64,000 bases of DNA from an uncultured Actinomycetes bacterium (GTDB lineage Bacteria > Actinomycetota > Actinomycetes > S36-B12): contig CAVWJW010000008.1 of the NCBI GenBank assembly GCA_963755335.1, positions 1,305,684-1,369,683 of the forward strand, written 5' to 3'. The position numbers were made by a program, and so were the translations under genes. The notes under the pieces are model-generated. The model was not told the DNA's origin. It was given only the letters and a program-made list of their open reading frames with translations, and did no database searches. Of this stretch, positions 4,051 to 58,333 are shown piece by piece (positions within the stretch are counted from its first letter, which is position 1; every line of letters starts with the position of its first letter).

Positions 4051-4133
4051 TATTGCGGGTCGACGCCTGCAAACGCTTACGTCACCGGCGTGACGTCACT
4101 CACGCGGCCCTGCATCGCCCGCCCGCCCGCACG

Positions 4134-5836: not shown

Positions 5837-6189
5837 GCCAGCAGGCCGCGCGCCAGGTACGCCTGGGCTGCCTCCCGCACCAGTGCGGCGTTCAGCGGAG
5901 CGTCCCGCGCATCGAGGTCGCGCGCGATCTGCTCGAGCTGCGCGCCCGTGGACCGACGCGGGCGGAGTGCCTCGTAGATGGCCAGCACGAGGTCGTCAGG
6001 CAGGACGGACAGTTCCGCTGCGCGCCGGAAGTTCGCCGCCAGCTGCGGGTTGCCGTGGCTGGCCGCCACCTCTGCCTGGTGCTCGAGGGTCGACGGGTCG
6101 ATGCGGATGTCGTCCACGGCGACATCGCCACCGCGTACGGCGTCGAGCGTGATGTCGTCGACGGATCGACCGGACTTCGCGCGGGTCAC
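5833..6189 (-). CDS. B12-dependent diol/glycerol dehydratase small (gamma) subunit
   Basis: VTRAKSGRSVDDITLDAVRGGDVAVDDIRIDPSTLEHQAEVAASHGNPQLAANFRRAAELSVLPDDLVLAIYEALRPRRST aligns by eye with the PduE/PddC core (LDDLTLENV...MRITPETL...NFERAAEL...PDDRILEIYNALRPYRST). GTGA overlap with the beta stop at 6186. Confidence 0.8.
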   Translation of the reverse strand: MTRAKSGRSVDDITLDAVRGGDVAVDDIRIDPSTLEHQAEVAASHGNPQLAANFRRAAELSVLPDDLVLAIYEALRPRRSTGAQLEQIARDLDARDAPLNAALVREAAQAYLARGLLA

Positions 6190-13153: not shown

Positions 13154-14710
13154 CCGCGCTGCTGGCGGACATACCACTGGAGCCGGCCGGCGTGCCGCGC
13201 GGTCGGGCCATGGTCGAACGCGCCGAGTGGGCCGCCCGGGCGTTCGCCTCCTACGACATCGAGACCGTGCGTCGCATCGCCAAGGCCGCGGCAGAGGCGG
13301 GCGAGAAGCATGCGCGGACGTTCGCCGAGGACGCGGTCGCCGAGACCGGCTTCGGCGTCGCGGAGCACAAGGTCCTCAAGAACGTGGCCTGCTCCATCGG
13401 CATCTGGAACACCTACGGCGGCAATGACTACGTGACACCCGTCGTCCACGACGACCAGCGGGTAGTCGAGATCCCGCGACCGGCGGGAGTCGTCTTCGCC
13501 CTCACGCCGTCGACCAACCCCGTGGCCACCACCTACTTCAAGATCATGCTCGCCCTCCTGACGCGCAACGCGATCATCATCAGCCCGCATCCCTATGCCA
13601 AGAAGGTCTGCGCCGCGGCAGCACGGGTCATGGGCGACGCCGCCATCGAGGCGGGCGCACCCGACGGGTGCATCCAGGTCGTCGAGGAGCCTTCCGTCCC
13701 GCTGATCGATGCGGTGATGTCGGATCCCCGCGTCGATGTCATCGTCGCGACGGGTGGGACCCCGATGGTCCGGGCGGCCTATCGAAGCGGCAACCCCGCG
13801 CTCGGCGTCGGTCCGGGCAACGTCCCCGTCCTGGTCGATGCCACGGCCGACCTGGCGATGGCGGCGCGTCACCTGGTCGCGAGCAAGGCGTTCGACAACT
13901 CGATCCTGTGCACCAACGAGTCCGTCGTGATCGTCGAGGAGAAGGTGGCCGCACCGTTCGCCGCCGCCCTTCGGCGTGAGGGCGCCTACGTCCTCGAGGG
14001 TGAGGAGATCGATGCCGTCCGGGGGGTGATCTTCGAGGGAGACCACTTCAACGTCGCTTGGGTCGGCCGCTCGGCCCGCCAGATCGCCGAGGCCGCCGAG
14101 GTCAAGGTCCCGGCGAACACGCGGATCCTCGTGGCGCCGTTCCCGATCGTGGTGCCGGAGGAGATGCTCGCCCACGAGAAGCTCTGCCCGGTTCTCGGCC
14201 TGGTGACGGTGCCGAGTGCATCGCGAGGGATCGACGCCGCCAGGGCCGTCCTGCGCATCACCGGCGCCGGGCACAGCGCGGCGATCCACAGTGCGGATCC
14301 GGGCACGGTCATGGCCTTCGCGGCCGCCGTACGGGTGCTTCGCGTGTCCGTGAACGTCGGCAACAGCCTGGGCGGCGCGGGCATCGAGACGAACCTGGCC
14401 CCGTCGATGACCATCGGCACCGGGTTCTTCGGCGGCTCGTCGCTGGGCGAGAATCTCGAGCCCAAGCACCTCGTCGACATGACCCGTATCGCGTACAACG
14501 CGGACACCCGTGTGCCCATGCCGAGCTTCGCCGACCTGACGCCCTGGGCGGCGCCCACGGGGGTCGTCCCGGCGTACCCGTTCGCGTCGAACCTGGCCGA
14601 CGCGCCGCGCCTGGTGCCCCCCACCCCGACCCGATGACGGGACCGGCGAGCTCCGCGAGGAGATCCGCCGACTCGTCGTCGAGGAACTACGACAGATCAT
14701 CAAGGGCTGA
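13150..14710 (+). CDS. CoA-acylating aldehyde dehydrogenase (EutE/PduP-like) with C-terminal encapsulation-peptide-like helix, 1 frame break
   Basis: ATG 13150 overlaps the upstream stop (ATGA). ALTPSTNPVAT...VATGGTPMV...GVGPGNVP...AFDNSILCTNES (catalytic Cys). After the C-run at 14617-14622 the frame shifts, and the gene continues PTPDDGTGELREEIRRLVVEELRQIIKG to the stop at 14708-14710. Confidence 0.8.
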
Positions 14711-34812: not shown

Positions 34813-35319
34813 ATGCCACGACCCAAGGTCTCCACGGATCGCCCGGGCGAGCGCCAGGGCCGTCCTCAGCTGACGCGCGAGGGCTGGGCCCGACTGCAGG
34901 ATCGGATCGTCGACATCCGGGAGCGCCAGCTGCCCGACCTGCGGCCCCTGCTTACCGAGACCGAGCGTGACGAGCGCATGGTGGCGGACTTCGAGCGGCT
35001 GATGGAGGAGGCCGACGCCATCGACGCGCTCCTCGGCACGGCCGACGTCATCGTGATCGACCCGGTGTCGGTCGACGGGCGGGTCGAGCTCGGGATGCGC
35101 GTGCAGGTGGTGCTCGCCGACGGCACGACCACGTGGGTCCGACCGGTGCACCCGGACGAGGCGTTCCTCGACGACGAGCGCGTGTCGGCGACCTCGCCGC
35201 TGGCGATCGCGCTCATCGGTGCCCGAGCCGGGCACACGGTGTGGGTGGACGCTCCCACAGGCGCATGGCCGTGCGAGGTCCTGGGCATCGACCTCGACGG
35301 CGTCGCGCTCGAGGACTAG
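34813..35319 (+). CDS. GreA/GreB-family (Rnk-like) transcription factor homologue
   Basis: LTREGWARLQDRIVDIRERQLPDL... followed by the C-terminal FKBP-like segment VELGMRVQVVLADG...VHPDEA...ERVSATSPLAIALIGARAGHTVWVDAPTG. Confidence 0.65.
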   Translation: MPRPKVSTDRPGERQGRPQLTREGWARLQDRIVDIRERQLPDLRPLLTETERDERMVADFERLMEEADAIDALLGTADVIVIDPVSVDGRVELGMRVQVVLADGTTTWVRPVHPDEAFLDDERVSATSPLAIALIGARAGHTVWVDAPTGAWPCEVLGIDLDGVALED

Positions 35320-35417
35320 GCGTCGACGACCGGTCCGCCGTCGTCCACAGGAGCTCCGCACAGGGGCGGCCTTCCCCAGACCGCGTGAGGCAGGACCTGT
35401 AGGCCAGCAGCGGGCCA

Positions 35418-36489
35418 ATGCTCGCGAGCATGGCAACCTCTCCTGTAGGCGATTCCCTTGTCCTGCGCAGTCCCGATGCGATGGTCGCTGCACTGCCGTA
35501 CCTCGTGGGGTTCACGCCCCATGAGAGCGCGACGGCGGTGTGGATCGCTGCGGGTCGACTGCTGCTCACGCAGCGGATGGACCTGGCCGGCTGGCTCGTG
35601 GACTCGCGCGCGTGGCTTGCCGCGCTCTTCGAGCATCCGTCCGCAAGGGCCGCCGACCAGCTGATCATGGTGCTGACCAGCAGCAGCGAGGTCCCCACTT
35701 CCCTCGTGGACGAATTGCGCGCCGGCGGCGGAGCATCGCGAGGTACTGGTCCGCGACATCCTGATCGTGGACGATGGCAGGTGGCGCAGTGCCATGTGCA
35801 CGGACGAGGCCTGCTGCCCACAGGTGGGCCGGCCCATCGATCCGCAGGTCCTCGTCGAGGTCTCGGCCGAGTTCACCGTCATGGGTGCCGCCCCCCTGGC
35901 GGATCGCGACGAGCTCCTCGCCTCCCTGTCGGCCGACCCCGGGCGGATCCGGCAGGTCGAGGCCAGCGCCGCCAGTGCCCGTCGACCCCGGAGGGGCCGC
36001 GACATCGAGGGATGGCGTGACGAGTCCATCGAGCGGACCGTGCGGCTTCTCCTGCCCGACTCGCGCGTACACGGCACGAAGGCTCCCGGCGGGCTCGCGG
36101 ACATCGCCGACGTGGCCGCGCTGCTGCACGGCCTTGCCGACATCCGGGTACGCGACACGGTCCTCTGGGAGCTCGCGGCCGCACATCCGGATGCGCTCCG
36201 TGGTGCGCTGGCCCAGCTGACCGCGGGAGTGCGGGCCGCGCCGGAACCGCTGGTCGCGCCAATCGCGACCACGTGCGCGGTGGCCGCGTGGCTCCTCGGC
36301 GATGGCGCCCGTGCGTCGATCGCCGCCGAGCGGGCCCTGTCGGCCCGCCCGGACTACACGCTCGGACAACTCGTCCTTCAGTCCCTGCGCGGCGGACTGC
36401 CGCCGACGACGTGGCGCTCGGCGATGGCCGGCGTCTCCCGCGATGAGTGCCGCCACGGCATCACGAACGCGGACCGGCAGGCCGGCTGA
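35418..36489 (+). CDS. DUF4192-family actinobacterial protein, 1 frame break
   Basis: LRSPDAMVAALPYLVGFTPHESATAVWI...CCPQVGRPID...VRDTVLWELA are patterns I associate with DUF4192. Shift near 35730. Confidence 0.55.
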
Positions 36490-36539
36490 GGTCGGCACGT
36501 CCGCTGCACGGACCGGCTCGACAGGCCCCAAGCGGGGTT

Positions 36540-36568
36540 TTGTCAAGACGCAAGGCTCTGGCTATAGT
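36540..36568 (+). promoter_or_regulatory. Strong sigma-A-type promoter of the metY-metX leader
   Basis: TTGTCA (36540-36545), 17 nt, TATAGT (36563-36568). The predicted TSS is about 7 nt before the riboswitch 5' end. Confidence 0.5.
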
Positions 36569-36575
36569 TCGCGGA

Positions 36576-36682
36576 GGTCAAGAGTTCCAGCGCTCAGCTC
36601 CGGCTTGCTGGACGGCAACCCTCCACCGCGGTGGGGTGCTCCGGATGAAGACCTGGCCCGGACTTTCGGGCAAGCGCGGGTC
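36576..36682 (+). promoter_or_regulatory. SAM-IV riboswitch aptamer
   Basis: GGUCAAGAGUUCCAGCG...CCGGCUUGCUGGACGGCAACCCUCCACCGCGGUGGGGUGCUCCGGAUGAAGACCUGGC...GGCAAGCGCGGGUC follows the SAM-IV consensus as I remember it. It lies upstream of metY-metX, the usual actinobacterial context. Confidence 0.75.
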
Positions 36683-36747
36683 TTGCGCAGGGCAAGACCC
36701 CGGAGATATTGCGAGGTCTGAATGCGCTGTTGTTGTCGAATGCCTAA

Positions 36748-39386
<2,639 letters not shown>

Positions 39387-45298: not shown

Positions 45299-45856
45299 GT
45301 GCCGGCACTGGCTAGGCTGCGGTCCGTGGCAGAAGCAGCAGAATCACGACCGTTCCCGACCGACGCCTTTGCCGATGTCATGTCGGCCAACGCCACGTAC
45401 TCCGAGCACTTCAGCGCCTCCGAGCTCAGTGGCTGGGCGAATGAAGGGCTGGCCGTGGTCACGTGCATGGACTCGCGGATCGATCCGCTGTCCGTCCTTG
45501 GCATGAAGGCCGGGGACGTGAAGATCCTGCGGAACGCCGGCGCCCGCGTGACCGAGGACGTCCTGCGCACGCTCGTCCTCGGCGCCTACCTGCTCGGGGT
45601 GACCCGCGTCCTGATCATGCCGCACACGGACTGCAAGATGGCCGGGGCGACCGAGGACGAGATCCACGCCATCATCGCGGAGCGCTTCGGAGTCGACACG
45701 CGCAGCGCCGAGTTCCGCACGGTGACCGACCAGACGTCAGCCCTGGCCACCGACGTCACCCGCGTGCGCGCGTACCCGTTGCTGCCCCGTGACCTCGTGG
45801 TCGGCGGGGCCCTCTTCGACGTGCGAACCGGGCGGCTCCTGCCCGTCGATATCTGA
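45299..45856 (+). CDS. Beta-class carbonic anhydrase
   Basis: VVTCMDSRIDP...LRNAGARVTEDVLRTLVL...VLIMPHTDCKM shows the Cys-Asp-Arg...His-x-x-Cys zinc-site pattern. The start may lie downstream of 45299. Confidence 0.75.
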   Translation: MPALARLRSVAEAAESRPFPTDAFADVMSANATYSEHFSASELSGWANEGLAVVTCMDSRIDPLSVLGMKAGDVKILRNAGARVTEDVLRTLVLGAYLLGVTRVLIMPHTDCKMAGATEDEIHAIIAERFGVDTRSAEFRTVTDQTSALATDVTRVRAYPLLPRDLVVGGALFDVRTGRLLPVDI

Positions 45857-45861
45857 CCCGC

Positions 45862-46059
45862 TCAGCCGTTCGGGCGCACCTTTGCGTACGGCTCCCCGCC
45901 GATGCCCCAGTCATCCGCACTGACCTCGTAGATCGCCACCCGCACCCGCGAGTGGTCGGTGCCGAGGGCGTCATGAACGGCCTGGGTGAGCTGCTTGATG
46001 AGGTCGTGCTTCTGCTCGACGGTGCGGCCTTCGACCATCGTGACTTGGACCAGTGGCAT
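45862..46059 (-). CDS. 4-oxalocrotonate tautomerase family enzyme (XylH-like)
   Basis: MPLVQVTMVEGRTVEQKHDLIKQLTQAV... Pro-1 follows the initiator Met. 65 aa. Confidence 0.8.
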   Translation of the reverse strand: MPLVQVTMVEGRTVEQKHDLIKQLTQAVHDALGTDHSRVRVAIYEVSADDWGIGGEPYAKVRPNG

Positions 46060-46094
46060 CGGATGCTCCTGAGGTGTCGGTGAACGGGGGGGGG

Positions 46095-46880
46095 TCAGAC
46101 GCAGGCGATCTCGACGGTGCCGAGACGATCGAATCGGGCGACCACGCTGTCACCGGGCTGCACGGCCACCGCTTCGGTGAGCGCTCCGCACATGACGACA
46201 TGGCCCGCCTGCAGGCCCCGGCCGCGCGCGGCCAGCTTGCGCACGAGCCAGGCGACAGCCCCAGCCGGGTGACCCATGACAGCAGCACCGGCGGCCGTGT
46301 GCATGAGCTGGCCGTTCTTCTCCAGCGTTGCACCGACCAGGCGCAGGTCGAACCCTCGAGGATCGACGCCCTGCCCGCCTAGGACGAAGCCCGCGCAGGA
46401 GCAGTTGTCGGCGATGACGTCCTGGTAGGTGAACTTGTATCCGGTGAACCGCGAGTCGATCACGTCGACGGCGCCGAACACGAGATCGGTGGCCGCGATC
46501 ACGTCGCGCGCCATGACCTGAGGGCCCTCGAGATCCTTCTTCAGGAGGAACGCGATCTCGACCTCGCATCGGGGCTGGATGAAGCGCGAGCAGACCAGGG
46601 GCTCGCCCACGTCGATCTGCATGTCGTCGGTGAGGATGCCGGACAGCGGCTCGCCCACGTTCATCTGCAGCTGCTTTGCCTTGCTGGTGAGTCCCGTCTT
46701 CGCACCCACGACGACCTGGCCCGCGTCGACGCGCGCCTGCACCACCGCGTCCTGGATCTCATACGCAGTGACGGGGTCGAGGTCAGGCCATGTGTTCGTC
46801 AGCGGCTCGATGCCGTGGACGTTGGCGGCCGCCTCGATGAGGGTGCGCGCCAGGACTTCCCTGTTGATCGGCTCAGACAT
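46095..46880 (-). CDS. 4-oxalocrotonate decarboxylase (XylI-like; 2-oxopent-4-enoate hydratase/decarboxylase family)
   Basis: Starts at internal Met [14 protein letters not shown]... Contains ...YEIQDAVV...GAKTGLTSKAKQ...EVEIAFLL... Assigned as the decarboxylase from its position in the xylJQKIH-type gene order. Confidence 0.65.
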   Translation of the reverse strand: MSEPINREVLARTLIEAAANVHGIEPLTNTWPDLDPVTAYEIQDAVVQARVDAGQVVVGAKTGLTSKAKQLQMNVGEPLSGILTDDMQIDVGEPLVCSRFIQPRCEVEIAFLLKKDLEGPQVMARDVIAATDLVFGAVDVIDSRFTGYKFTYQDVIADNCSCAGFVLGGQGVDPRGFDLRLVGATLEKNGQLMHTAAGAAVMGHPAGAVAWLVRKLAARGRGLQAGHVVMCGALTEAVAVQPGDSVVARFDRLGTVEIACV

Positions 46881-47904
46881 CTGCCAACTCCGCCTCTGCA
46901 TGCTTGCGGGCCAGCTCGAGGGCCACGTCGATGATCATGTCCTCCTGGCCGCCCACGACCTGGCGACGTCCGAGTTCGAGCAGGATCTCGGCCTGCGACA
47001 CGTTGTAGCGCTTCGCCGCTCGTTCGGCGTGCAGCAGGAAGGATCCGTAGACCCCCGCGTACCCGAGGATGAGGCCAGCGCGGTCGATGACCTGCTGGCG
47101 AGGCATCAGCGGACGCACGATCTCCTCCGCCACGTCCATGAGGGCCAGCGGATCCACGCCCGTCTCGATCCCGTACTTCGCGCTCACGGCGGCGAGGATC
47201 TCCGTGGGGCAGTTGCCCGCGCCGGCGCCGAGCCCGGCCGACGTGCCGTCGAGGTTCTTGGCGCCCTCCTGGTAGGCCGCGATCGAGTTGGAGACGGCCA
47301 TGGCGAGGTTGTTGTGCGCATGGACGCCGAGCGGGACGTCGAGGGCGTTGACGAGGGCATTCACCCGCACCTTGACGTCCTCGGTGGTCATGGCTCCCGC
47401 CGAGTCGGCGATGTAGATGGTGTCGGCCCCGTAGGACTGCATGAGCAGCGCCTGCTCGACGAGTCCCTCGGGCGAGTTCATGTGGGCCATCATCAGGAAG
47501 CCGATGGCCTCCATGCCCAGGCCCTTGGCCACCTTGATGTGCTGCTCGGTGATGTCGGCCTCGGTGCAGTGCACCGCGATGCGTGCCACCGAGACGCCCA
47601 TCTCGTTGACCTCGCGAAGGTCATCGGCCAGGCCGATGCCGGGCAGGAGGAGGCATGCGATCTTGGCGTTCTCGGTGACTTCGCAGGCCTTCGCGATGAG
47701 TTCCTTCTCGGGGACCGCGGAGAATCCGTAGTTGAAGCTCGAGCCGCCGAGACCGTCGCCGTGCGCGATCTCGATCACCTGCACGCCGGCGCGGTCGAGG
47801 CCCTGGACGATCTTGATGACGTCCTCGGCGTAGTACTGGTGGCTCAGCGCGTGCGACCCGTCGCGCAGGGTGGAGTCGATGAGGCGGTAGTCCGTCGTTG
47901 TCAT
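46873..47904 (-). CDS. 4-hydroxy-2-oxovalerate aldolase (DmpG/BphI/XylK type)
   Basis: [12 protein letters not shown]...[18 protein letters not shown]...[16 protein letters not shown]...[12 protein letters not shown]. 343 aa. Confidence 0.9.
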
Positions 47905-48821
47905 GCCTGGGCTCCTTGCGTGCGATGGGCGGCGATGGCCTCGCCGACGCGCTGGGCGGCGGCCGTCATGATGTCGAGGTTGCCCGCGTAGGGGGGCAGG
48001 TAGTCGCCGGCACCCTCGACCTCGAGTAGGACGACAGCCCGATGGGGGACCTCGCCGCCTGGCGTGAGGAACGGACCCTCCTCGATGACCGGGGGGTTCT
48101 TGAGCCGGTAGCCCGGCACATACTGCTGGACGGCCTTCTCCATCTCGTAGACGGACGAGAGGACCGCGTCGTGATCCGTACCCTCGGGGAGGGCGCCGAA
48201 CACCGTGTTGCGCATCATGATGGGCGGCTCAGCCGGGTTGAGGATGATGATGGCCTTGCTCAGGTTCGCTCCGCCGATCTCGCGCAGGGCCGTGGAGGTC
48301 GTCTTGGTGAACTCGTCGATGTTCTGGCGCGTGCCGGGGCCGGCCGACTTCGACGACACGGTCGACACCATCTCGGCATAGGGCAGGTCCGCGACGGCCC
48401 GCCGGATCGCGTAGACCATCGGCGTCGTGGCCTGACCGCCGCACGTGACCATGTTGATGTTCGGTGCGTCGAGGTGCTCGAGCAGGTTCACCGCGGCGAT
48501 GACCTTCGGGCCGATAGCGGCGGGCGTGAGGTCGACGGCCATGATGCCCGCGTCCTCGTAGTTCTGGGCCTGGGCCTTGTGCACGTAGGCGCTGGTGGCG
48601 TCGAACACCATGTCGATGTCGTCGGCGTGGTCGAGGACCCACTGCGGGCCCTCGTGCGGGCCGTCAATGCCCAGCTTGCGAGCACGGGCGAGGCCGTCGC
48701 TGTTGGGATCGATGCCCACGAGGGCGACGAGCTCGAGTGCCGAGCCCTCGGCGTTCAGCAGCTTGATCATCAGGTCCGTGCCGATGTTGCCGGAACCGAG
48801 GATGGCGCATCTCATCGTCAT
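47901..48821 (-). CDS. Acetaldehyde dehydrogenase (acylating) (DmpF/BphJ/XylQ type)
   Basis: [16 protein letters not shown]...[13 protein letters not shown]...[12 protein letters not shown] overlap with the aldolase gene. Confidence 0.9.
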
Positions 48822-48826
48822 CGTGC

Positions 48827-49627
48827 CTACTCCTTCGCCATGCGGATGGTGATCGGACCGAGTCGATCGAACTCGGCCCGGAAGACGTCGCCGGGACTGA
48901 CGGGCACCATCGCGTGCAGGGCCCCGGTCATGATCACGCTGCCTGCGGGCAGCGTCACGCCCATCGGGGCGAGGGTGTTGGCGAGCCAGGCCACAGCGGC
49001 CATGGGATCGCCGAGGGCGGCGGCGCCGGCCCCCGTGGCGATCAGCTCGCCGTTGCGGGTGACGACCATGCCGACGAGGCGCGGGTCGATCCCGTCGAGG
49101 GGGACAACCTGGCTGCTGAGGGCGATGGCGCCGTTGCTGGCCAGGTCGGCCACCGTGTCGGCCAGCTTGATCTTCCAGTCCTTGATGCGCGAGTCGACGA
49201 TCTCCAGCGCGGCGACGAGGCCACGGGTGGCCTGGCTTGCAGCAGCCGGGGTGCAGTTCGGCCCGGCGAGATCCTCGCCGAGAACCACGCCGATCTCCGC
49301 CTCGATCCGTGGCGCGATGAAGCGATCGACGGGGATCTCCACCCCGTCGCCGTACACGGTGGACGCGAACACCGGACCGAAGTCGGGGGAGCCGACGCCC
49401 AGAAGCTGCTGCATCGCGGCCGAGGTGAGCCCCAGCTTGTAGCCGGAGATGGTCTCGCCGTCGTCGAGCAGCATCCGGACCAGGTGTGTCTGGATCGCGT
49501 AGCCGTCCTCCATGCCGAGATCGGGCAGCGCCTCGGTGAACGCGGCGATCGGCTCTCGATCACGGCGGGCGGTGTACAACGCGGCAGCGAACGACTTCGC
49601 CTGGTCGTCGGTCACGATGACCGTCAT
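48827..49627 (-). CDS. 2-oxopent-4-enoate (2-keto-4-pentenoate) hydratase (XylJ/MhpD/BphH type)
   Basis: From internal Met [20 protein letters not shown]...GYAIQ...[12 protein letters not shown]...EAEIGVVLG. First enzyme gene downstream of the IclR regulator. Confidence 0.75.
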
Positions 49628-50463
49628 GGTTGGTCCCTCTCGTTCGATGGGGGTCGGTATCCAAGCCTTCTCGAGATGGCGGCCGCTGCGTCCTGGCACG
49701 GCCGCGGATAGCGCTTCAGTGCGTCGCCGTCGAGGCCGGCCGTCGGCACGACCACGGAGATCGCCGCGACCACGGCCCCGTCGGCGTCGCGGATCGGGGC
49801 AGCCACGCTGGCGACGCCCATCTCGGCCTCGTTCACGTTCTCGGACCAGCCGCGCTCACGGATCTCCGCCAGCTGCGCACGCAGGACGGTGACGTCGGAC
49901 ACCGATGCCTCCGTGCGTCCGGTCAGCTCCCAGCCGTCGAGGAGCTCCTCGAGCCGCGACGGCGGCAGGAACGCGAGCAGCGCCTTGCCTGAGCCCGTGC
50001 AGTTCGCGGGGAAGCGATGCCCGACCCGGCCGAACATCCGCAGCGTGGAGGCCGTCTCGCGCCGTTCCACGTAGACGACCTCGCGTCCGTCGAGCACGGA
50101 CACCTGGACGGTCGCCTTGGTGGCCGCTCGCAGCTGATCCATGACCGGTACGCAGACCTCGTGCAGGATGCTGTACGTCGACACCGAACGGCCGAGCTCG
50201 AACATGGCCAGGCCCAGCCGGTAGGCACCGGTGCGGGGGTCGCGCTCGAGCAGCCGCTCCTCGGTGAGCGTGTTGAGCAGACGGTGAGCGGTGCTCTTGC
50301 CCAGGCCAAGCCGGCGGGCCGCCTCGGTGACGCCCATCTCCCGGCGCTCACCGGCGAACTCCTTGAGCAACCGGGCTGCACTGGCGACGCTCGACAGGCT
50401 CGAATGGTGTCGATGGCTCACGGAATCGGTGCGTACGGCACCGTCCGTGGCCTCAGGCTGCAT
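49624..50463 (-). CDS. IclR-family transcriptional regulator
   Basis: HTH GVTEAARRLGLGKSTAHRLLNTLTEERLLERD. The effector domain ...GHRFPANCTGSGKALLAFL...GWSENVNEAEMGVASVAAPI is typical of IclR proteins. ATGA overlap with the hydratase gene. Confidence 0.85.
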   Translation of the reverse strand: MQPEATDGAVRTDSVSHRHHSSLSSVASAARLLKEFAGERREMGVTEAARRLGLGKSTAHRLLNTLTEERLLERDPRTGAYRLGLAMFELGRSVSTYSILHEVCVPVMDQLRAATKATVQVSVLDGREVVYVERRETASTLRMFGRVGHRFPANCTGSGKALLAFLPPSRLEELLDGWELTGRTEASVSDVTVLRAQLAEIRERGWSENVNEAEMGVASVAAPIRDADGAVVAAISVVVPTAGLDGDALKRYPRPCQDAAAAISRRLGYRPPSNERDQP

Positions 50464-50486
50464 GCTTCAGGACGCTAGCACCGGGT

Positions 50487-50503
50487 TTCCCGCATCGCGG
50501 GAA
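50487..50503. promoter_or_regulatory. Palindrome in the IclR / PEP-utilising-enzyme divergent region (operator candidate)
   Basis: TTCCCGC-ATC-GCGGGAA with 7-bp perfect arms, located 24 nt upstream of the IclR start codon. Confidence 0.35.
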
Positions 50504-50610
50504 GCCGTTTCATCCTGCGGAACGGTACCTGCGCAACGGCGTCCGACGGGGCATCGCTTTCGCCGTTCGCGAGAGTCCGTCGACCGGTCCGGACACAATG
50601 GCCGGGGGAG

Positions 50611-53469
50611 GTGCGCGTGCCGGACGTGCTGTGGCTGCAGGAGGTTTCCTCCGCCGACGTCGCACTGGTCGGGGGCAAGGCCTCGAGCCTCGGCGAACTC
50701 ATCGGCGCGGGGCTGCCCGTGCCGGCGGGCTTCGCGGTCACGATCGAGGCGTACGTCGAGAGCCGGGACACATCCGGCCGAGGACTGGCCCTCGGCGACC
50801 TCCTGACACGGGCGCACGGTTCTGACCTGACCGTTACCGCCTCCGCCTGTGAGGCGGCCCGCGAACTCGTCCGCACGATGCCCATCGCGCGGCATATCGA
50901 CGAGGCGATCCGCGGCGCCTACCGACAGCTCGGGGCGCTGATGGACGACCCCCGCGTCCCGGTCGCCGTTCGCTCGTCGGCCACCGGGGAGGACTCCCTG
51001 GACGCCTCGTTCGCAGGAGAGCACGACACGTACCTGTGGGTGCGCGGCGAATACGACGTCGTCGACGCGGTCCGGAACTGCTGGGCGAGCCTGTTCACGG
51101 CGCGAGCCGTGTCGTACCGGACGGAGATGGGACTGGACCATCAGGGCCTGGCCATGGGCGTGGTCGTCCAGGCGATGGTGCACCCGGTGAGTGCTGGCGT
51201 CGCCTTCACGCTCAACCCGTCCAACGGCGACCGCTCCGTCACGGCCGTCGACTCCTCGTGGGGATTCGGCGAGGCGGTCGTGTCCGGAGAGGTGACGCCC
51301 GACAGCTTCCTCGTCGACAAGGTGACCAACGCCGTGGTCCTGCGGGTCATCTCGGACAAGAGGCACGAGTTCGCGCTCAGCCAGGACGGCACCGTGGCGC
51401 GGGTGAGCGTGCCGCCGCCGCGGTCGACACAGCCGAGCCTCGATAACCGCGAGATCCTCGAGATCGCGCGACTGGCGCGGGCCTGCGAAGGGCATGCCGG
51501 TTGTCCGCAGGACGTCGAGTGGGCGCTTGTCGCGGCTCCCGGCGAGGGGACTGCTGTCGTGCTGCTGCAGACCCGGCCGGAGACGGTGTGGAGCCGATTC
51601 AAGCGGGACGGCGTCGTGGCACCCGCGCCTCGATGGACGCCGGTGGCCGACCTTCGAGTGGCCGACCGGTTCCGCAGCCCGTTCGACGTCGAGACACCGC
51701 CGGGTGCCGAGGGCTGGCCGGACCTCTACACGTACTCGACGCTGTTCAGCGAGGGTCGCAGGGCGAGCGAGGAGGCGAAGTTCTGGTTTCAGGACGGTGT
51801 GCACTGGCCGGACCCACTACCTCCGTGGGATGCGACCTTGATGGAGTTCGCCCTCGCCGCCCTGTCGCAGTACAACACGCGTCAGCTCCTGCTGCCGTCG
51901 ACCAACGGGATCGAGTTCCGGGTGCTCAACGGGTACGTCTACCTATCGCCGGTCGGCGTCCGCGCCGACGAGGTCGAGGCGCGCGTGCTGGAGTTCGCCG
52001 AGCGAGCCGACTTCTACTACACGCACTGGGACGAGCTGTACCAGCGATGGATGGGCAAGATCACCACACTGGTCGACGCCCTGCACGCGCTGAGGTTCGA
52101 GCCCCTTCCGGACGTCGAGGACGTGGACGAGGTCGTCCGGTCCGGTTCAGGGGTCGGATCCGGATTCGCCCTCCTGTCGGACTATCGCCGGCTCGTCGAC
52201 CTCGCCATGCAGCTGTGGCAGTACCACTTCGAGTTCCTCAACCTGGGCTATGCCGCCTACCTGGAGTACTTCGGCTTCTGCAAGAGCGCCTGGCCGAGCA
52301 TCCCGGACCTGTCGATCGCGACCATGGTGGCCGGCGTCGAAGTCGACCTGTTCCGTCCCGACGACGAGCTCAAGAAGCTGGCCGGGCTGGCCGTCACCGG
52401 CGGGCTGGCTGCGGCATTCGACAAGCCCGACGCCGCAGCCGTCACGGCGGTGCTCGCGAGGACCGAAGCCGGTCGAACCTGGCTGGCCGCGTACCAGGAC
52501 TGCTCCGAGCCGTGGTTCAACTTCTCCACCGGTTCGGGCTTCTACCACTCCGACTGCATCTGGATCGAGTCGCCGGACGTCCCCTTCGGCTTCATCCGGG
52601 ACTACATCGCGCGCCTGCAGCGCGGCGAGGTGCTGGATCGCCCGGTCGCCGCGATCCGCGCCGAACGGGACCGGCTTGTGGAGGAGTACGTCGCGTTCCT
52701 GCCGGACGAGGCATCACGACGCGAGTTCCGGACGAGGCTCGACCTCGCACGAAAGGTCTTCCCCTACGTCGAGAACCACAACTTCTACGTCGAGCACTGG
52801 TGTCACTCCGTCATCTGGCGGCGGATGCGCGAACTCGGCGGAGTGCTGGCCGACCGAGGCTTCTGGCCGCGGGCCAACGACATCTTCTACCTCAAGCGGA
52901 CCGAGGTGGAGGACGCCCTGTGGGACTACTACGCCGCCTGGGCAACGCCGTCCCAGCCCGCGGGCCCGGCGTACTGGCCGACCATCGTCGAACGCCGACG
53001 CGCGGTTCTCGCCGTCCTGCGGGCGGCATCGCCCGATCCGGCGCTCGGGGCGCCGCCCGAGGTGGTGACCGAGCCCTTCACCGTCATGCTCTGGGGCATC
53101 ACCTCCCAGAGCGTCAGCAACTGGCTGGGCGGCACGACGTCGTCCGACGGTGAGCTCACCGGGTTCGCGGCCTCGCCGGGGCTCGTCGAGGGCACGGCGC
53201 GGGTGATCATGTCGGCGGACCAGATCAGCGATGTGCAGGACGGTGAGATTCTGGTGGCCCCCCTGACGGCACCGAGCTGGGCGCCGCTGTTCGGCAGGAT
53301 CGCCGCAACCGTCACCGACACCGGCGGAATCATGAGCCACGCAGCAATCGTGTGCCGCGAGTACGGACTCCCGGCGGTGACGGGCACGGGGGTCGCCACC
53401 ACCATGATCGCGACCGGCATGAGGCTGCGGGTGGACGGGGCACGCGGCACGGTCACGATCCTGGGCTGA
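50611..53469 (+). CDS. PEP-utilising-family phosphotransferase: PPDK_N ATP-grasp + ~480-aa unassigned central region + phospho-His swivel domain (no PEP/pyruvate TIM barrel)
   Basis: N-terminus VGGKASSLGEL...VAVRSSATGEDSLDASFAGEHDTYL...NCWASLFTARAVSYR...GVVVQAMV...DSSWGFGEAVVSGEVTPD. C-terminus GEILVAPLTAPSWAPLFGRIAATVTDTGGIMSHAAIVCREYGLPAV (catalytic His). 952 aa, intact. GTG 50617 is better spaced from the GGGGGAG RBS than 50611. Confidence 0.75.
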   Translation: MRVPDVLWLQEVSSADVALVGGKASSLGELIGAGLPVPAGFAVTIEAYVESRDTSGRGLALGDLLTRAHGSDLTVTASACEAARELVRTMPIARHIDEAIRGAYRQLGALMDDPRVPVAVRSSATGEDSLDASFAGEHDTYLWVRGEYDVVDAVRNCWASLFTARAVSYRTEMGLDHQGLAMGVVVQAMVHPVSAGVAFTLNPSNGDRSVTAVDSSWGFGEAVVSGEVTPDSFLVDKVTNAVVLRVISDKRHEFALSQDGTVARVSVPPPRSTQPSLDNREILEIARLARACEGHAGCPQDVEWALVAAPGEGTAVVLLQTRPETVWSRFKRDGVVAPAPRWTPVADLRVADRFRSPFDVETPPGAEGWPDLYTYSTLFSEGRRASEEAKFWFQDGVHWPDPLPPWDATLMEFALAALSQYNTRQLLLPSTNGIEFRVLNGYVYLSPVGVRADEVEARVLEFAERADFYYTHWDELYQRWMGKITTLVDALHALRFEPLPDVEDVDEVVRSGSGVGSGFALLSDYRRLVDLAMQLWQYHFEFLNLGYAAYLEYFGFCKSAWPSIPDLSIATMVAGVEVDLFRPDDELKKLAGLAVTGGLAAAFDKPDAAAVTAVLARTEAGRTWLAAYQDCSEPWFNFSTGSGFYHSDCIWIESPDVPFGFIRDYIARLQRGEVLDRPVAAIRAERDRLVEEYVAFLPDEASRREFRTRLDLARKVFPYVENHNFYVEHWCHSVIWRRMRELGGVLADRGFWPRANDIFYLKRTEVEDALWDYYAAWATPSQPAGPAYWPTIVERRRAVLAVLRAASPDPALGAPPEVVTEPFTVMLWGITSQSVSNWLGGTTSSDGELTGFAASPGLVEGTARVIMSADQISDVQDGEILVAPLTAPSWAPLFGRIAATVTDTGGIMSHAAIVCREYGLPAVTGTGVATTMIATGMRLRVDGARGTVTILG

Positions 53470-53561
53470 TTCGGCCCTGAGTGACGGCCCGGGCGGTCCA
53501 CGTCGCGGCAGCCCAGCCACTAGGTTTGACCGGTTACCGCCCATCACGTCGAGGAGAGCGC

Positions 53562-54917
53562 ATGTCACGCCCAGTTCGGGTTGCCGTCATCGGTTCGGGT
53601 CCTTCTGGGATGTATGCGGCGGACGCACTGGTCAACCAGACCGACGTGCCGGTAGAGGTCGACGTCATCGACCGGCTGCCCGTGCCCTTCGGACTCGTGC
53701 GCTACGGCGTGGCTCCGGACCACCTCAGCATCCGCTCGGTGCGCGACACGCTCAACAAGACGCTCGACAAGCCGGGTGTCCGCTTCCTCGGCAACGTGAC
53801 AGTCGGTCGCGACGTCAGCCTCGACGACCTCCACCGGTGCTACGACGCGATCATCTTCAGCTACGGCGCATCGCGGGACCGTCGGCTCGGCATCCCCGGC
53901 GAGGACCTCGCCGGCAGCGTTGCAGCCACTGACCTCGTGGAGTGGTACTGCGGCCATCCCGACGCGGATCGGGCCACCTTCGAGGCCCTGCTGCCGAGCA
54001 CCACCAGCGCGGTCGTCGTCGGCGTCGGCAATGTCGCGGTGGACGTCACGCGCGTCCTGGCCAAGACGGTCGCGGAGCTCGATCACACCGACATGCCGCA
54101 GTACGTCTTCGACACTCTCGCGAAGTCGCAGGTCACCGACATCCACGTGCTGGGTCGCCGTGGACCGGCTCAGGCGGCCTTCACCACCAAGGAACTGCGT
54201 GAGCTCGGGGAGCTCACGGACGCCGATGTCATCGTCTCAGTCGCCGATATGGAGCTCGACGACGTCAGCCGGGCAGCTGCCGAGAGCGACCGCGCCGTCC
54301 TGCGCAACGTCGACGTGATGCGGGAGTGGTCCACGCGTTCGCCAGCCGGCAAGCCGCGCCGCATCCACCTGCACTTCTTCGCGCGCCCCGTCGAGCTGCT
54401 CGGCGAGGGACGCGTCCAGATGGTCGTCGTGGAGCGCACGGCGCTCACTCCCGAGGGCGGGGCGGCCGGCACGGGTGAGTTCTTCGAGCTCGCCGCCGAT
54501 CTCGTCGTGCGCAGCGTCGGCTACCGCGGCACCGCCATCGACGGCGTTCCTTTCGATTCGGGCCGCAACGTCATCCCGCACACGGACGGGCGCGTGCAGG
54601 CCGACGCGGCGAACGTGGCGGGGGAGTACGTGGCCGGCTGGATCAAGCGGGGACCCACCGGGATCATCGGCACCAACAAGAAGGACGCGGCAGCCACCGT
54701 CGCCTCGCTCCTCGCCGACGTCGCCGCCGGCGTCCTGCCCGAGCCGGCAGCACCAGGCGGGATCGACGCACTGCTGTCCGAGCGCGGTGTCGATGTCGTG
54801 ACGACCGAGGGCTGGCGGGCGATCGATCAGGCCGAGCGCGATCTCGGGGCGACCCGCGGTCGTGACCGCACGACCATCCACGAGCGGGGGAGCCTGCTCG
54901 ACGCCAGCAAGGCCTGA
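53562..54917 (+). CDS. fprA: NADPH:ferredoxin reductase (adrenodoxin-reductase type)
   Basis: VAVIGSGPSGMYAA...FGLVRYGVAPDH...GRRGPAQAAFTTKELRELGEL...LVVRSVGYRG...GWIKRGPTGIIGTNKKDA closely parallels M. tuberculosis FprA as I recall it. Starts at the internal Met of ORF 53481..54917. Confidence 0.85.
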   Translation: MSRPVRVAVIGSGPSGMYAADALVNQTDVPVEVDVIDRLPVPFGLVRYGVAPDHLSIRSVRDTLNKTLDKPGVRFLGNVTVGRDVSLDDLHRCYDAIIFSYGASRDRRLGIPGEDLAGSVAATDLVEWYCGHPDADRATFEALLPSTTSAVVVGVGNVAVDVTRVLAKTVAELDHTDMPQYVFDTLAKSQVTDIHVLGRRGPAQAAFTTKELRELGELTDADVIVSVADMELDDVSRAAAESDRAVLRNVDVMREWSTRSPAGKPRRIHLHFFARPVELLGEGRVQMVVVERTALTPEGGAAGTGEFFELAADLVVRSVGYRGTAIDGVPFDSGRNVIPHTDGRVQADAANVAGEYVAGWIKRGPTGIIGTNKKDAAATVASLLADVAAGVLPEPAAPGGIDALLSERGVDVVTTEGWRAIDQAERDLGATRGRDRTTIHERGSLLDASKA

Positions 54918-54921
54918 GGGC

Positions 54922-55881
54922 CTAGAGCCAGGGCTCCGTCGGCGTCAAGCCCACGCAGAGCCACTCGATGCCGGGCACGGGGGTCTTGCCGCACGACTCG
55001 AGCCGGTCGCGTTCTAGCGATCTGGACACGACAGTCGTGCGCCACGCTCGGCCATCGGCATGGCGAACCTCCACGTCGATCGAACCCAGTCCCTCCGGCA
55101 GGCTCATCGGCACCCGCACCGCCCGGGCGGTTCCTTCGGTGACGCGCAGCACGTCAAGCGCGTCGACGTCGCCGACGCCGTACTCCCGCTGCACCTCGGC
55201 GGCCGCCACCTGGCCCGGCGGAAGCAGCGAACTGCGCCCACGGAAGTGATCGAGGACGACTCCGTTCACGGAGGCCCGATGGTGCACTGTCATCGCGGCC
55301 TCGAGATCGAGGCGGCCGTGGACGGTCCCGGCGGGCAGTGTGAGGCAGACGGGGGCGAATCGATGCCCGCCGATGTGGCTGCACTCCCACACCTCGCGGC
55401 GTACCTCCGGTTCCAGGTGCTGCATCATCTCGGTCACGAGGGCGCGGCCGTGGAGCGCACAGCAGCGGTCGCGGCCGCTGTGGGTGCAGACGAACATCAC
55501 CGGCGTGCGGACGATGTCGCCGAATCCGGGCAGGCTGCCCTGGCCGATCGCGGTGAGGTCCCAGGCGAGGAGTTCGCTGAGCGAGTCGACCTCGGCGTGG
55601 CGCATGAGCAGGCCGCCGGCCGCGGACCGGGCGATCCACACGTGGCGGCTGGACGCCTGCGAGCGTTCTGGTCGATCCGGATGCCGAGCCAGGAGCACGG
55701 ACACCCCGGTGCCCTTGTGCTGGGCCAGGTGCGCGGCCACTGCTGGGTCGAGGTGGCTGTCGGTGAGGGCATCGCGACCCCAGGGCCCCGGCTGCTCGAT
55801 GACGATCCAGGCCGTGGCGTACGGCGCCGTCCCGGTCAGCGGCTCGTGCGCGGCGAGGGCGTCGATGGAGCAGGTGCTCAC
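54922..55881 (-). CDS. Sucrase/ferredoxin-like (thioredoxin-like [2Fe-2S]) family protein
   Basis: WIVIEQPGPWGRDAL...VCTHSGRDRCCALHG...ECSHIGGHRFAP shows the characteristic Cys/His pattern. Confidence 0.65.
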   Translation of the reverse strand: MSTCSIDALAAHEPLTGTAPYATAWIVIEQPGPWGRDALTDSHLDPAVAAHLAQHKGTGVSVLLARHPDRPERSQASSRHVWIARSAAGGLLMRHAEVDSLSELLAWDLTAIGQGSLPGFGDIVRTPVMFVCTHSGRDRCCALHGRALVTEMMQHLEPEVRREVWECSHIGGHRFAPVCLTLPAGTVHGRLDLEAAMTVHHRASVNGVVLDHFRGRSSLLPPGQVAAAEVQREYGVGDVDALDVLRVTEGTARAVRVPMSLPEGLGSIDVEVRHADGRAWRTTVVSRSLERDRLESCGKTPVPGIEWLCVGLTPTEPWL

Positions 55882-58333
55882 AGCGCGCCGCCCAGCCCCG
55901 CCATCGGGGCTGCGCCTGGGGTGCCGGTGCCGTCACGGCGCGGATCGACCTCGGGGAGTGACACCGGAACGCCCGATGCGGTCGCCGCCCGGGCGGGACC
56001 CTTGCCCACCCACGCGAGCAGCAGCCGATCCTCGCCGGAGCGGAACTTGTGGCAGCGCACCCCGCCGGTGGCACGGCCCTTCCCCGGGTACTCGGCGAAC
56101 GGCGTGACCTTCACCGTGCCCACCTCGGTGCCCGGCAGGGCGGCACCGCTGCCGGCCACCGTCACGACCACGGCGTCGTCCGCGGGGATGAACGCACGTG
56201 AACGCGATCACCTCGGACCCGCGGGCCAGCTTGATGCCGGCCATGCCGGCCGCCGCGCGGCCCTGCGGTCGTACGCTGGCCGCCGGAATCCTGAGCAGCT
56301 GGCCGTCGGACGTCACGAACACCAGCTCGGCGGCCTCGGCGTCCGACTCGGCCAGGCGGGTTGCTCCGACCACGCGATCGCCCTCGTCGAGCCGGATGAC
56401 CTCCCAGGAATCCTTGTTCAGCAACGAATCCGGGATCACCCGCTTGACCACGCCGGTGGCCGTGGCAAGCGCCAGGCCGCCACTCTCGTCGAGCGTGGTC
56501 AGGGCGAGGGCCACCTCGTCGCGGGGCAGGTCGACGAAGGCGCCCAGTGGCGCACCGGCCGACAGGGCCGGCACTCCGGAGACGGCGGGGATGCTCGGCA
56601 GATCGATGGCGCTCAGGCGCAGCGACCCGTCCGGCACTGGTGACGAGCCCGAACTCGCCGCGGGTGGTCGCCGGGATCGCGCTGATGACGACGTCGTGGG
56701 TCGAGCGCTGGGCATGCGAGCTGTCCGGGGCCGTTGAGGTGTCGGACGTGCGCGCGAGCAGCCCGGTGCTCGACAGCAGGATCACGCACGGCTCGTCATT
56801 GACCTCGAGCGGCACCCGGGCGACCACGGGGGCTGCGGAACCCTCCATGAGCAGGGTCCGGCGCGGCGTCGCGTGTGCCTGCGCCACGGCGCCGATCTCG
56901 TCGGCCACGGTGGCGCGAAGGACCGTCTCGTCCTCGATGATCGCCGTCAGCGCCTCGACCTCGCGTCGCAGGTCATCGCCCTCCTTCTCCAGCTCGATGC
57001 GGGAGAACTTGGTGAGGCGGCGAAGCGGCATGTCGAGGATGTAGGTGGCCTGGACATCGGACAGGTCGAAGACGGTGATCAGCCGGGTCTTCGCCGAGGC
57101 GGCATCGTCGGACTCGCGGATGAGCTGGATGACCTCGTCGATGTCGAGGATCGCGACGAGGAGGCCCTCGACCAGGTGCAGCCGGTCCAGGGCCCGGGCC
57201 CGCCGGTAGACGCTGCGTCGGCGCACCACCTGGAGCCGGTGGTCCAGCCAGACGCGCAGCATCTGCACCAGGCCCATCGTCTGCGGCTGGCCCTCGACGA
57301 GGGCGACCGCGTTCACGTTGACCTGGTCCTCCATCGGCGTCAGCTTGAACAGGTGCTCCAGCACCGCCTCGGGATGGAAGCCGTTCTTGATCTCGATGAC
57401 CAGTTGCAGGCCGCTGTCGCCGTCGGTCAGGTCGACCACGTCGGAGATGCCCAGCAGCTTCTTGCCCTGCACGGCGTCCTTGATGCGATCGATGACGCGC
57501 TCGGGCCCGACGTTGTAGGGCAGCTCGGTGACCACGATGCCGCGACGTCGCGGCGTGATCTGCTCGACCCGTGTGCGGGCGCGGACCCGGAAGGTGCCGC
57601 GACCGGACTCGTACGCATCGCGGACGCCGTCGAGACCGACGATCACGCCACCGCCGGGGAAGTCGGGACCGGGGATGAAGGTCATCAGGTCGGCGAGGGT
57701 CGCCTCCGGATGCTGCAGGAGGTGCCGCGCGCCGTTGAGGACCTCGCCGAGGTTGTGCGGGACGAGGTTCGTCGCCATGCCCACCGCGATGCCCGACGCG
57801 CCGTTGACCAGGAGGTTCGGGATGGCGGCGGGCAGCACGGCGGGCTCGGTCTCGCGGCCGTCGTAGTTGGGCCCGAAGTCGACGACGTCCTCGTCGAGCC
57901 CCGCGGTCATGTCCATGGCCGGCGCGGCCAGCCGCGCCTCGGTGTAGCGCATCGCAGCGGGACCGTCGTCGAGGGAGCCGAAGTTGCCGTGGCCGTCGAC
58001 CATCGGCAGCCGCAGCGAGAACGGCTGCGCCATCCGCACCAGCGCGTCGTAGATGGCCGAGTCGCCATGCGGGTGCAGCCGGCCCATCACCTCGCCGACC
58101 ACGCGGGCGCTCTTGACGTGACCGCGGTCTGGGCGCAGGCCCATCTGCGCCATCTGGAACAGGATGCGGCGCTGCACCGGCTTCAGGCCGTCGCGCGCGT
58201 CGGGCAGCGCCCGCGCGTAGATGACCGAGTAGGCGTACTCGAGGAACGAGCCCCGCATCTCATCCGAGACGTCGATATCGACGATCCGGCCGTCGCCGGG
58301 CGCCTGTGCCGTGCGGCTGGAGCGGCGGGCCAT
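55878..58333 (-). CDS. parC: Type IIA topoisomerase A subunit (topoisomerase IV ParC-like / GyrA paralogue), 2 frame breaks
   Basis: [30 protein letters not shown]...[20 protein letters not shown]...AMRYTEARL (catalytic Tyr)...[14 protein letters not shown]-terminal beta-pinwheel pieces lie in the 55933..56715 and 55878..56171 frames (shifts near 56640 and 56195). Confidence 0.85.

Follow-up and report, generated by a model that had tools for sequence, protein, structure and literature searches.

A probable phenolic dikinase joined into one chain by recent gene fusion, at a locus that has lost its partner genes, in an uncultured Actinomycetes bacterium

We analyzed a 64,000-nucleotide stretch of DNA from an uncultured Actinomycetes bacterium (contig CAVWJW010000008.1; hereafter the window), focusing on an intact forward-strand gene that a preliminary description had placed among the phosphoenolpyruvate (PEP)-utilizing phosphotransferases. 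Comparative sequence analysis indicates that this gene probably encodes a single-chain form of the two-component, ATP-dependent phenolic dikinases PpsAB, CreHI and HpeHI, recently formed by fusion of two adjacent genes and deprived of its partner genes. Two-component phenolic dikinases include the phenylphosphate synthase PpsAB of Thauera/Azoarcus, CreHI of Corynebacterium glutamicum, which acts on 4-cresol, and HpeHI of Rhodococcus rhodochrous GD02, a 4-hydroxyacetophenone/acetovanillone dikinase; the characterized members share ~45% identity with one another (PMC12167813). HpeH is equivalent to the rifampicin-binding-like domain plus the swivel domain of rifampicin phosphotransferase (RPH), and the phospho-histidine of HpeH, CreH and PpsA lies in a T/S-x-x-G-G-x-x-x-H motif that has Met at the position where PEP synthase has its regulatory Thr (PMC12167813). 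By its sequence and inferred mechanism, the window dikinase is an ordinary member of this family; what is new about it is a single-chain, tail-less and orphaned architecture.

The gene and its predicted parts are located as follows, with residues counted throughout from the GTG at 50611.

50611..53469, plus strand: predicted fused I-H dikinase gene (longest open reading frame [ORF], GTG start, 952 amino acids)
50662..51603, plus strand: ATP-grasp nucleotide-binding domain (residues 18-331), corresponding to the I component (PpsB/CreI/HpeI); Pfam PPDK_N
51604..51657, plus strand: fusion linker (residues ~332-349); junction comparison with loci L002, L006 and L007 (see below) and low predicted local distance difference test (pLDDT) score
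51658..53190, plus strand: predicted all-alpha substrate-binding domain (residues ~350-860), the N-terminal five-sixths of H; NF006150, DSSP and Foldseek
53191..53466, plus strand: phospho-histidine swivel domain (Pfam match to residues 876-946); PF00391

The frame is intact, as the preliminary description had reported, and the left edge given there (50464) merely adds 147 nucleotides of intergenic region. Another GTG, at 50617, follows GGGGGAGG by 5 nucleotides and would yield a product of 950 amino acids. Because of this placement, and because a public protein collection holds a residue-for-residue copy of the 950-amino-acid product, 50617 is the probable true start.

Both ends of the protein are readily assigned. 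The Pfam family PPDK_N (PF01326) matches residues 18-331 (E 3e-94), and this domain resembles HpeI (9GOJ) by sequence (E 4e-72) and by structure (40% identity in the Foldseek alignment), with R121 and T140 aligning with R127 and T146, the residues of HpeI that bind the alpha-phosphate of ATP. At the C terminus, the PEP-utilizers family (PF00391) matches residues 876-946 (E 4.6e-22). Here the TDTGGIMSHAAIVCREYGLPAV motif is present, reading T902-D-T-G-G-I-M908-S-H910, with the catalytic His910 encoded by codon 53338-53340; position -2 of the motif is Met rather than the regulatory Thr, and position -1 is Ser, as in CreH and PpsA. The PEP/pyruvate barrel (PF02896) has no match in the dikinase among Pfam models. 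The two terminal domains and the missing TIM barrel had all been proposed in the preliminary description, and they withstand these searches.

The central region had been described as matching nothing recognizable. This holds in Pfam, where no model matches residues 332-875, but not in NCBIfam, where NF006150 (PRK08296.1-2) spans residues 352-951 (model positions 4-605 of 633) with 814 bits against a cutoff of 650. That model carries only the name 'hypothetical protein'. Homology searching also recovered hundreds of proteins of 600-606 amino acids, labelled 'PEP-utilizing enzyme', that cover exactly the H part with up to 73% identity. The center thus represents the substrate-binding domain found in the H components PpsA, CreH and HpeH, a module already known, and hence is not novel in itself.

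Structure prediction points the same way. In a confident AlphaFold2 model of the dikinase (pLDDT 88.5; predicted template modeling score, 0.82), residues 352-845 are helical almost throughout by DSSP, and disorder is predicted in the linker (328-351, pLDDT <50) and in a loop at 128-137. Among entries of the Protein Data Bank (PDB) searched with Foldseek, RPH was the sole structure aligned across all three domains (5HV1, E 1e-40, ~1000 columns, 23% identity). When residues 350-952 were modeled separately, again only RPH matched the whole length, its four best entries giving E ~1e-17, TMq 0.54-0.57 and 18-20% identity over 607-625 columns, while all other PDB matches covered the swivel domain alone (~120 residues). 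At 18-23% identity, the likeness to RPH is one of fold alone. The Foldseek comparison that had been proposed for the central region therefore yields a predicted all-alpha fold covered by RPH alone, not a degenerate barrel. Domain content and predicted fold are together consistent with the original proposal of a three-part small-molecule dikinase, kin to phenylphosphate synthase and RPH and not a pyruvate enzyme.

Annotated plasmid clusters served as stand-ins for the characterized dikinase types: Azoarcus sp. KH32C for the Pps type (ppsA/ppsB/CBS with ppcBDAG), and Rhodococcus ruber for the Cre type, whose cluster has the cre arrangement of IclR, P450, I, H, short-chain dehydrogenase, ferredoxin, reductase, HD hydrolase and aldehyde dehydrogenase. 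The window H part is 48% identical to the Pps-type H of KH32C and 50% to the Cre-type H of R. ruber, values similar to the ~45% among the characterized members, and it sits in a third large clade, apart from the Pps and Cre types. In the course of this comparison we observed that, in two Rhodococcus plasmids (L090, 5665-15300, and L091), both conjugative or mobilizable, Cre-type clusters directly adjoin a toluene-4-monooxygenase-type cluster. This arrangement suggests that plasmid-borne genes lead from toluene, by way of p-cresol, into the phosphorylated cresol pathway.

The related loci that we compared with the window were drawn from GTDB species representatives and metagenomes and are numbered here with the prefix L. 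The nearest syntenic metagenome-assembled genomes are labelled Actinomycetes or Candidatus Nanopelagicales; the GC content of the window is 69.6%. L002-L004 and L006 have split I (346-359 amino acids) and H (603-606 amino acids) genes in the same parE...parC context. At the dikinase position, L002-L004 encode a PPDK_N protein of 359 amino acids and an H protein of 603, 41 nucleotides apart; in L006 the two genes overlap by 4 nucleotides. One flank common to the window and L002-L004 comprises parE, carbonic anhydrase, tautomerase, decarboxylase, aldolase, dehydrogenase, hydratase and IclR, and the opposite flank comprises FprA, a Suc_Fer-like gene, parC, PfkB and IndA. Residues 6-335 of the window protein align with the I protein of L002 (63% identity), and residues 350-951 with its 603-amino-acid H protein (72% identity). 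V350, encoded by the GTG at 51658, corresponds to the ancestral H start codon (VADRFRSPF in the window, MARRFRSPF in L002), and a 14-residue linker stands in for the last ~26 residues of I, the stop codon and the spacer.

The segment of I removed in this way carries a conserved tail. The motif [FLM]M[SDA]SIVSTL[LMV]xP[LV]H is kept by almost every split I protein, in phyla that range from Actinomycetota to Proteobacteria and Bacteroidota; the tail includes MSSIVSTLLSPLH and lies, for example, at 9878-9959 of L002. It is deleted in the window fusion and degenerate in a Pseudonocardia-type fusion. That the tail is deleted once the enzyme is covalently linked suggests that it normally helps I to dock on H.

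Fusion is the exception among these loci. The genes are split in 81 of 87 related loci, and genuine fusion seems confined to L001, L005, L025 and L055; two further loci that scored as fused in our scan, L036 and L083, are probably frameshifts. Since parC of the window is frameshifted, we considered whether the fusion might be an artefact of assembly. We rejected this because all four members of the 90% protein cluster are fused and 950 amino acids long, because the junction recurs in three contigs besides the window and, in L001 and L093, both short-read MEGAHIT contigs, is likewise in frame and has the same surroundings, and because L001 has diverged from the window at synonymous sites (dS 0.08). 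In a neighbor-joining tree of the H part, the window and L001 are sister to the split L002 (99% bootstrap), this group then joins the split L006 (100%), and all four are nested in a clade of split enzymes from parC-syntenic genomes (97%). The Pseudonocardia-type fused clade (L005 and L025) and a Kocuria fusion (L055) are placed elsewhere in the tree. Judged from this topology, fusion of I and H arose several times, and that of the window is recent and independent of the other fused clades.

The surroundings of the dikinase, listed below, provide the second component of our interpretation.

45862-46059, minus strand: 4-oxalocrotonate tautomerase, 65 amino acids (lower meta-cleavage)
46095-46901, minus strand: 4-oxalocrotonate decarboxylase (lower meta-cleavage)
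46873-47904, minus strand: 4-hydroxy-2-oxovalerate aldolase (lower meta-cleavage)
47901-48821, minus strand: acylating acetaldehyde dehydrogenase (lower meta-cleavage)
48827-49699, minus strand: 2-oxopent-4-enoate hydratase (longest ORF; real start probably 49627; lower meta-cleavage)
49624..50463, minus strand: IclR-family regulator, divergent from the dikinase (Pfam HTH_IclR and IclR_C)
50487..50503, no strand: perfect 17-bp palindrome TTCCCGC-ATC-GCGGGAA, predicted IclR operator from family-wide conservation
50517..50523, no strand: third half-site GCGGAAC, 13 nucleotides downstream of the palindrome and within a conserved block (50466-50523)
53481..54917, plus strand: FprA-type NADPH-ferredoxin reductase (probable start ~53562, 451 amino acids; 1LQT)

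Much of this layout had been recognized at the outset. Pfam searches bear out the divergent IclR gene followed by meta-cleavage genes from hydratase to tautomerase, the palindrome lies exactly where it had been reported, and the gene 3' of the dikinase does match FprA of M. tuberculosis (1LQT, E 3e-98). The lower meta-cleavage block spans 45862..49699 on the minus strand, and its gene order is alike in L001 and L002. As a further difference between these loci, L002, the closest relative with split genes, has two additional genes between carbonic anhydrase and tautomerase (2806-4108), one for an SbtA-type bicarbonate transporter and one of P-II (SbtB-like) type; the window has neither (45856-45862).

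Using the genes of L007 as tblastn queries against all loci, we found a fixed gene order around the dikinase in 43-52 of 88 loci. The operon consists of a gene for a hypothetical protein of 235 amino acids (minus strand), two extradiol dioxygenases, a His_Phos_1 protein of 365 amino acids, I, H, a Rieske/LigXa_C-VanA_C oxygenase of 422 amino acids and an ORF of 92 amino acids. Its divergent side holds IclR, hydratase, dehydrogenase, aldolase, decarboxylase and tautomerase, frequently accompanied by an aldehyde dehydrogenase. Each of the two dioxygenases scores above the cutoff of the catechol 2,3-dioxygenase equivalog TIGR03211 (375 and 342 bits; cutoff, 320). L007 (5057-13417; the same as L074) provides an example, and others include L009-L016, L050 and L053. 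Our literature searches found no paper on an operon combining catechol 2,3-dioxygenase, phosphatase, dikinase and Rieske genes. One possible function of this operon is the aerobic conversion of a phenol into catechol by way of an aryl phosphate.

Five loci (L009, L012, L050, L053 and L064) combine this full operon with the FprA/Suc_Fer-like/parC backbone of the window. In them, FprA sits 3-4 kb beyond the dikinase, past the Rieske gene. FprA and the dikinase co-occur only in parC-syntenic loci, and where the operon is full, the Rieske and 92-amino-acid genes separate the two. On these grounds we rejected FprA as a redox partner of the dikinase; like the Suc_Fer-like gene and parC, it belongs to the chromosomal backbone. 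Tblastn found no homologue of the phosphatase, Rieske, catechol 2,3-dioxygenase, UbiD or HAD genes, nor of the 92-amino-acid ORF, anywhere in the window. Because the reduced clade (the window, L001, L002-L004 and L006) is nested among full-operon loci, we conclude that it lost the dioxygenases, phosphatase, Rieske oxygenase and small ORF from the locus.

The IclR gene and its predicted operator remain in the window lineage. The 17-mer is identical in L001, L002 and L004, where the rest of block 50466-50523 is well conserved and other intergenic DNA has diverged; L006, which is without an IclR gene, does not have the block. Scanning the 1.2 kb upstream of each iclR start and tolerating at most 2 mismatches, we found the core TCCCGC-N3-GCGGGA in 32 of the 44 non-redundant loci that have an IclR orthologue, in the divergent promoter region before the dikinase operon. 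The number of core sites (45) far exceeds the 9.4 expected (Poisson P 5e-17). Because the core tracks the IclR orthologue across the family, the palindrome is likely the operator of an IclR regulon. The palindrome and third repeat are reminiscent of sites of PcaU/PobR-type IclR regulators, and the regulator itself is PcaR/PcaU/PobR-like, with a score below cutoff. Most likely, the IclR protein would bind the palindrome at 50487-50503 together with the third half-site and would either repress or activate expression. A scan of 50300-55000 for sigma-70 promoters and intrinsic terminators returned no match.

These observations can be assembled into a history and a mechanism. As the comparison shows, the ancestral locus was an operon under IclR control, beside the lower meta-cleavage pathway, in which the dikinase was accompanied by two catechol 2,3-dioxygenases, a histidine phosphatase and a Rieske mono-oxygenase. 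A recent in-frame fusion of the adjacent I and H genes removed the I tail, stop codon and spacer, and the window lineage kept the dikinase, IclR with its operator and the lower pathway while the dioxygenase, phosphatase and Rieske genes disappeared from the locus. By analogy with the biochemistry of PpsAB, HpeHI and RPH, the N-terminal ATP-grasp domain would bind ATP, His910 of the swivel domain would attack the beta-phosphate to become pyrophosphorylated, and the gamma-phosphate would leave as Pi. The phospho-His domain would then swing to the all-alpha central domain and phosphorylate the hydroxyl of a bound phenolic, the products being AMP, Pi and an aryl phosphate. With two catechol 2,3-dioxygenases, a phosphatase, a Rieske mono-oxygenase and a complete catechol meta-pathway as the partners in the ancestral operon, our most likely guess for the substrate is a simple monocyclic phenol that would be turned, as its phosphate ester, into catechol.

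Several observations weigh against this interpretation. The substrate assignment relies on the context of sister genomes only, a context that the window lineage has lost, and within 64 kb there is no ring-cleavage dioxygenase or semialdehyde dehydrogenase to feed the lower meta-cleavage genes. The sequences compared were plasmid-borne orthologue types and not those of the characterized CreH, PpsA and HpeH. The window contains indel errors or pseudogenes elsewhere, parC being in three frames. The dikinase has also changed faster than its neighbors: between the window and L001, its ratio of nonsynonymous to synonymous substitution (dN/dS) is 0.23, against 0-0.08 for neighboring genes, and its identity to L002 is 63-72%, compared with 83-97% for IclR, FprA, hydratase, dehydrogenase, aldolase, parE and parC. 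Finally, G467D and K738R fall at positions invariant in 84 other H sequences. Faster evolution than the neighbors and changes at invariant positions together indicate that dikinase function may have shifted or weakened.

The same data indicate continuing constraint. Synonymous divergence between the window and L001 is similar for the dikinase (dS 0.084) and its neighbors (0.07-0.09), of which only the Suc_Fer-like gene has a raised dN/dS (0.26). Within the dikinase, dN/dS is 0.27 for the N-domain, 0.19 for the center, 0.12 for the swivel and 0.63 for the linker. Family-invariant columns are kept at 50 of 50 positions in the N part and 68 of 70 in the H part. G467D and K738R are confined to the fused pair, and L006 has K738Q. 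Two further changes at positions at least 95% conserved, A431T/S and G711D/E, are common to all members with the reduced cluster. Altogether, lineage-specific substitutions at such positions, judged against the 84 other H sequences, occur at residues 431, 467, 709, 711 and 738 (nucleotides 51901-52824). To judge from these substitution patterns, the dikinase is under purifying selection that has been weaker or shifted since the partners were lost.

Other accounts of the gene must be set beside the recently fused, partnerless phenolic dikinase that we favor. An unlikely possibility is that the dikinase is the surviving first step of the undescribed aerobic route, which then became fused and stand-alone, serving in phenolic trapping or detoxification or acting on a new substrate. 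In the original route, a phenol would be phosphorylated, the Rieske enzyme would hydroxylate the aryl phosphate, and the histidine phosphatase would release catechol for meta-cleavage.

Slightly more doubtful is a neofunctionalized stand-alone kinase, still under IclR control, that acquired a new substrate or role after partner loss, whether in phenolic trapping or detoxification or on an antibiotic-like molecule. Such a change would fit the reduced-cluster lineages (the window, L002 and L006) lying 25-30% farther from outgroups than their full-operon sisters, the substitutions at residues 431 and 711 that these lineages have in common, and a gene that stays intact under purifying selection without its partners; RPH shows that the three-domain architecture can serve resistance. 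However, relaxed constraint explains the acceleration equally well, the context is not of a resistance type, and retention of IclR, the operator and the lower aromatic pathway argues for a continued aromatic-catabolic role.

We regard as improbable the possibility that the gene is a decaying relic, a dikinase on its way to becoming a pseudogene after pathway loss, with the fusion a neutral by-product. Partner genes gone from the locus, a dN/dS at least three times that of the neighbors, the two changes at invariant positions and deletion of the conserved I tail would all be expected of such a relic. The 950-amino-acid ORF is nevertheless intact in four independent assemblies differing at dS 0.08, domain dN/dS values (0.12-0.27) are well under 1, and 118 of 120 family-invariant residues are kept, the catalytic His and ATP-binding residues included. 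The split orthologues in L002 and L006 have likewise stayed intact since partner loss.

Membership of the RPH family, with rifamycin or another antibiotic as substrate, is very improbable. RPH has the same three domains in a single chain and is the best full-length structural match. However, the preliminary description had called for a check of RPH membership, and the window protein proves not to be an RPH orthologue: it falls far below the equivalog cutoffs (NF041857, 351 bits against 999; NF000283, 275 against 1700), in matches confined to the N-domain (residues 6-325). Its H part has 18-20% identity with RPH, compared with 72% for the separate H components of aromatic-catabolic loci. As for upstream elements, actinomycete rph genes have a 19-bp rifamycin-associated element; the 17-bp palindrome of the window co-occurs with the IclR orthologue family-wide. 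Models of the prodigiosin ligases PigC/RedH likewise score below cutoff and match the N-domain only (NF052631, 320 bits against 1300; NF052632, 300 against 1350). Least credible of all, and refuted by the results above, are an ordinary PEP synthase or pyruvate phosphate dikinase (PPDK) with a degenerate barrel, which the N-domain resembles but which is contradicted by the missing PF02896, scores below the family models (TIGR01418, 401 bits against 740; NF005057, 411 against 598), the all-alpha center and the Met at -2, and an assembly artefact joining two genes, which the indel errors in parC might suggest but which the recurrence of the in-frame junction in L001, L093 and all four cluster members contradicts.

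Elsewhere in the window, the remaining genes have functions unrelated to the dikinase. The parC gene (topoisomerase IV subunit A; 55878-58333, minus strand) is broken into three frames relative to an intact L001 orthologue of 817 amino acids, with a 1-nucleotide insertion near 56195. Because parC is essential, we attribute these breaks to probable assembly indels in the 2-Mb contig rather than to a real pseudogene. Genes for a Cys/Met-metabolism pyridoxal-phosphate enzyme (36447-37909, plus strand; profile positions 73-284 of 381 only) and a DUF4192 protein (35316-36489; positions 111-320 of 321 only) may be frameshifted or truncated. Large and small subunit domains of a B12-type diol/glycerol dehydratase occur in one ORF of 868 amino acids (5833-8439, minus strand), adjoined by a diol dehydratase reactivase (4134-5636, minus strand). 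Another ORF, of 934 amino acids (11833-14637, plus strand), joins class-III aminotransferase and aldehyde dehydrogenase domains.

Phenolic dikinases have been recognized as a two-component subfamily only recently, with HpeHI in 2025. The recent fusion and its split orthologues, at 63-72% identity, form a ready-made pair for studying I-H docking and the function of the tail, and biocatalytic production of aryl phosphates could be simpler with a single-chain enzyme. Our comparison has further brought to light an operon, widespread in environmental Actinomycetota and apparently uncharacterized, with a phosphorylation-dependent aerobic route to catechol as a possible function. We rate this sister operon, which lies outside the window, as more intriguing than the window gene.

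Set against known systems, the window enzyme shares homologous ATP-grasp and swivel domains and phospho-His chemistry with PEP synthase and PPDK, but it differs in lacking the TIM barrel and the regulatory Thr and in having its swivel at the C terminus, after the substrate domain. Like RPH (Listeria structures 5FBS, 5FBT and 5HV1), it is a single chain in the order ATP-grasp domain, all-alpha substrate domain and His swivel, and by analogy the swivel mechanism would be alike. It differs from RPH in sequence (~20% identity, far under the RPH cutoffs), in its catabolic, IclR-controlled context rather than one of resistance, and in a fusion that arose independently and recently from split genes.

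The closest counterparts are PpsAB, CreHI and HpeHI, which have the same ATP-grasp I module, all-alpha H module with His swivel and T/S-x-x-G-G-x-M-x-H motif, likewise lack a TIM barrel, and are similarly linked to IclR regulators and aromatic catabolism. In contrast to these, the window enzyme is one polypeptide from which the conserved I tail has been deleted. Partners differ as well: a UbiD-type carboxylase for Pps, P450 and HD phosphohydrolase for Cre, biotin carboxylase for Hpe and, in the subclade of the window, catechol 2,3-dioxygenases, histidine phosphatase and Rieske oxygenase, which the window lineage is missing. An older fused clade, represented by Pseudonocardia asaccharolytica (L005), provides a parallel. 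Its protein, annotated only as 'PEP/pyruvate-binding domain-containing protein', is an I-H fusion of similar length and is 55-58% identical to the window protein. It belongs to a separate clade, represents an independent fusion event and keeps a remnant of the I tail, and its neighbors are genes for a soluble di-iron mono-oxygenase, a metallo-beta-lactamase-fold protein and acetoin-dehydrogenase-like proteins.

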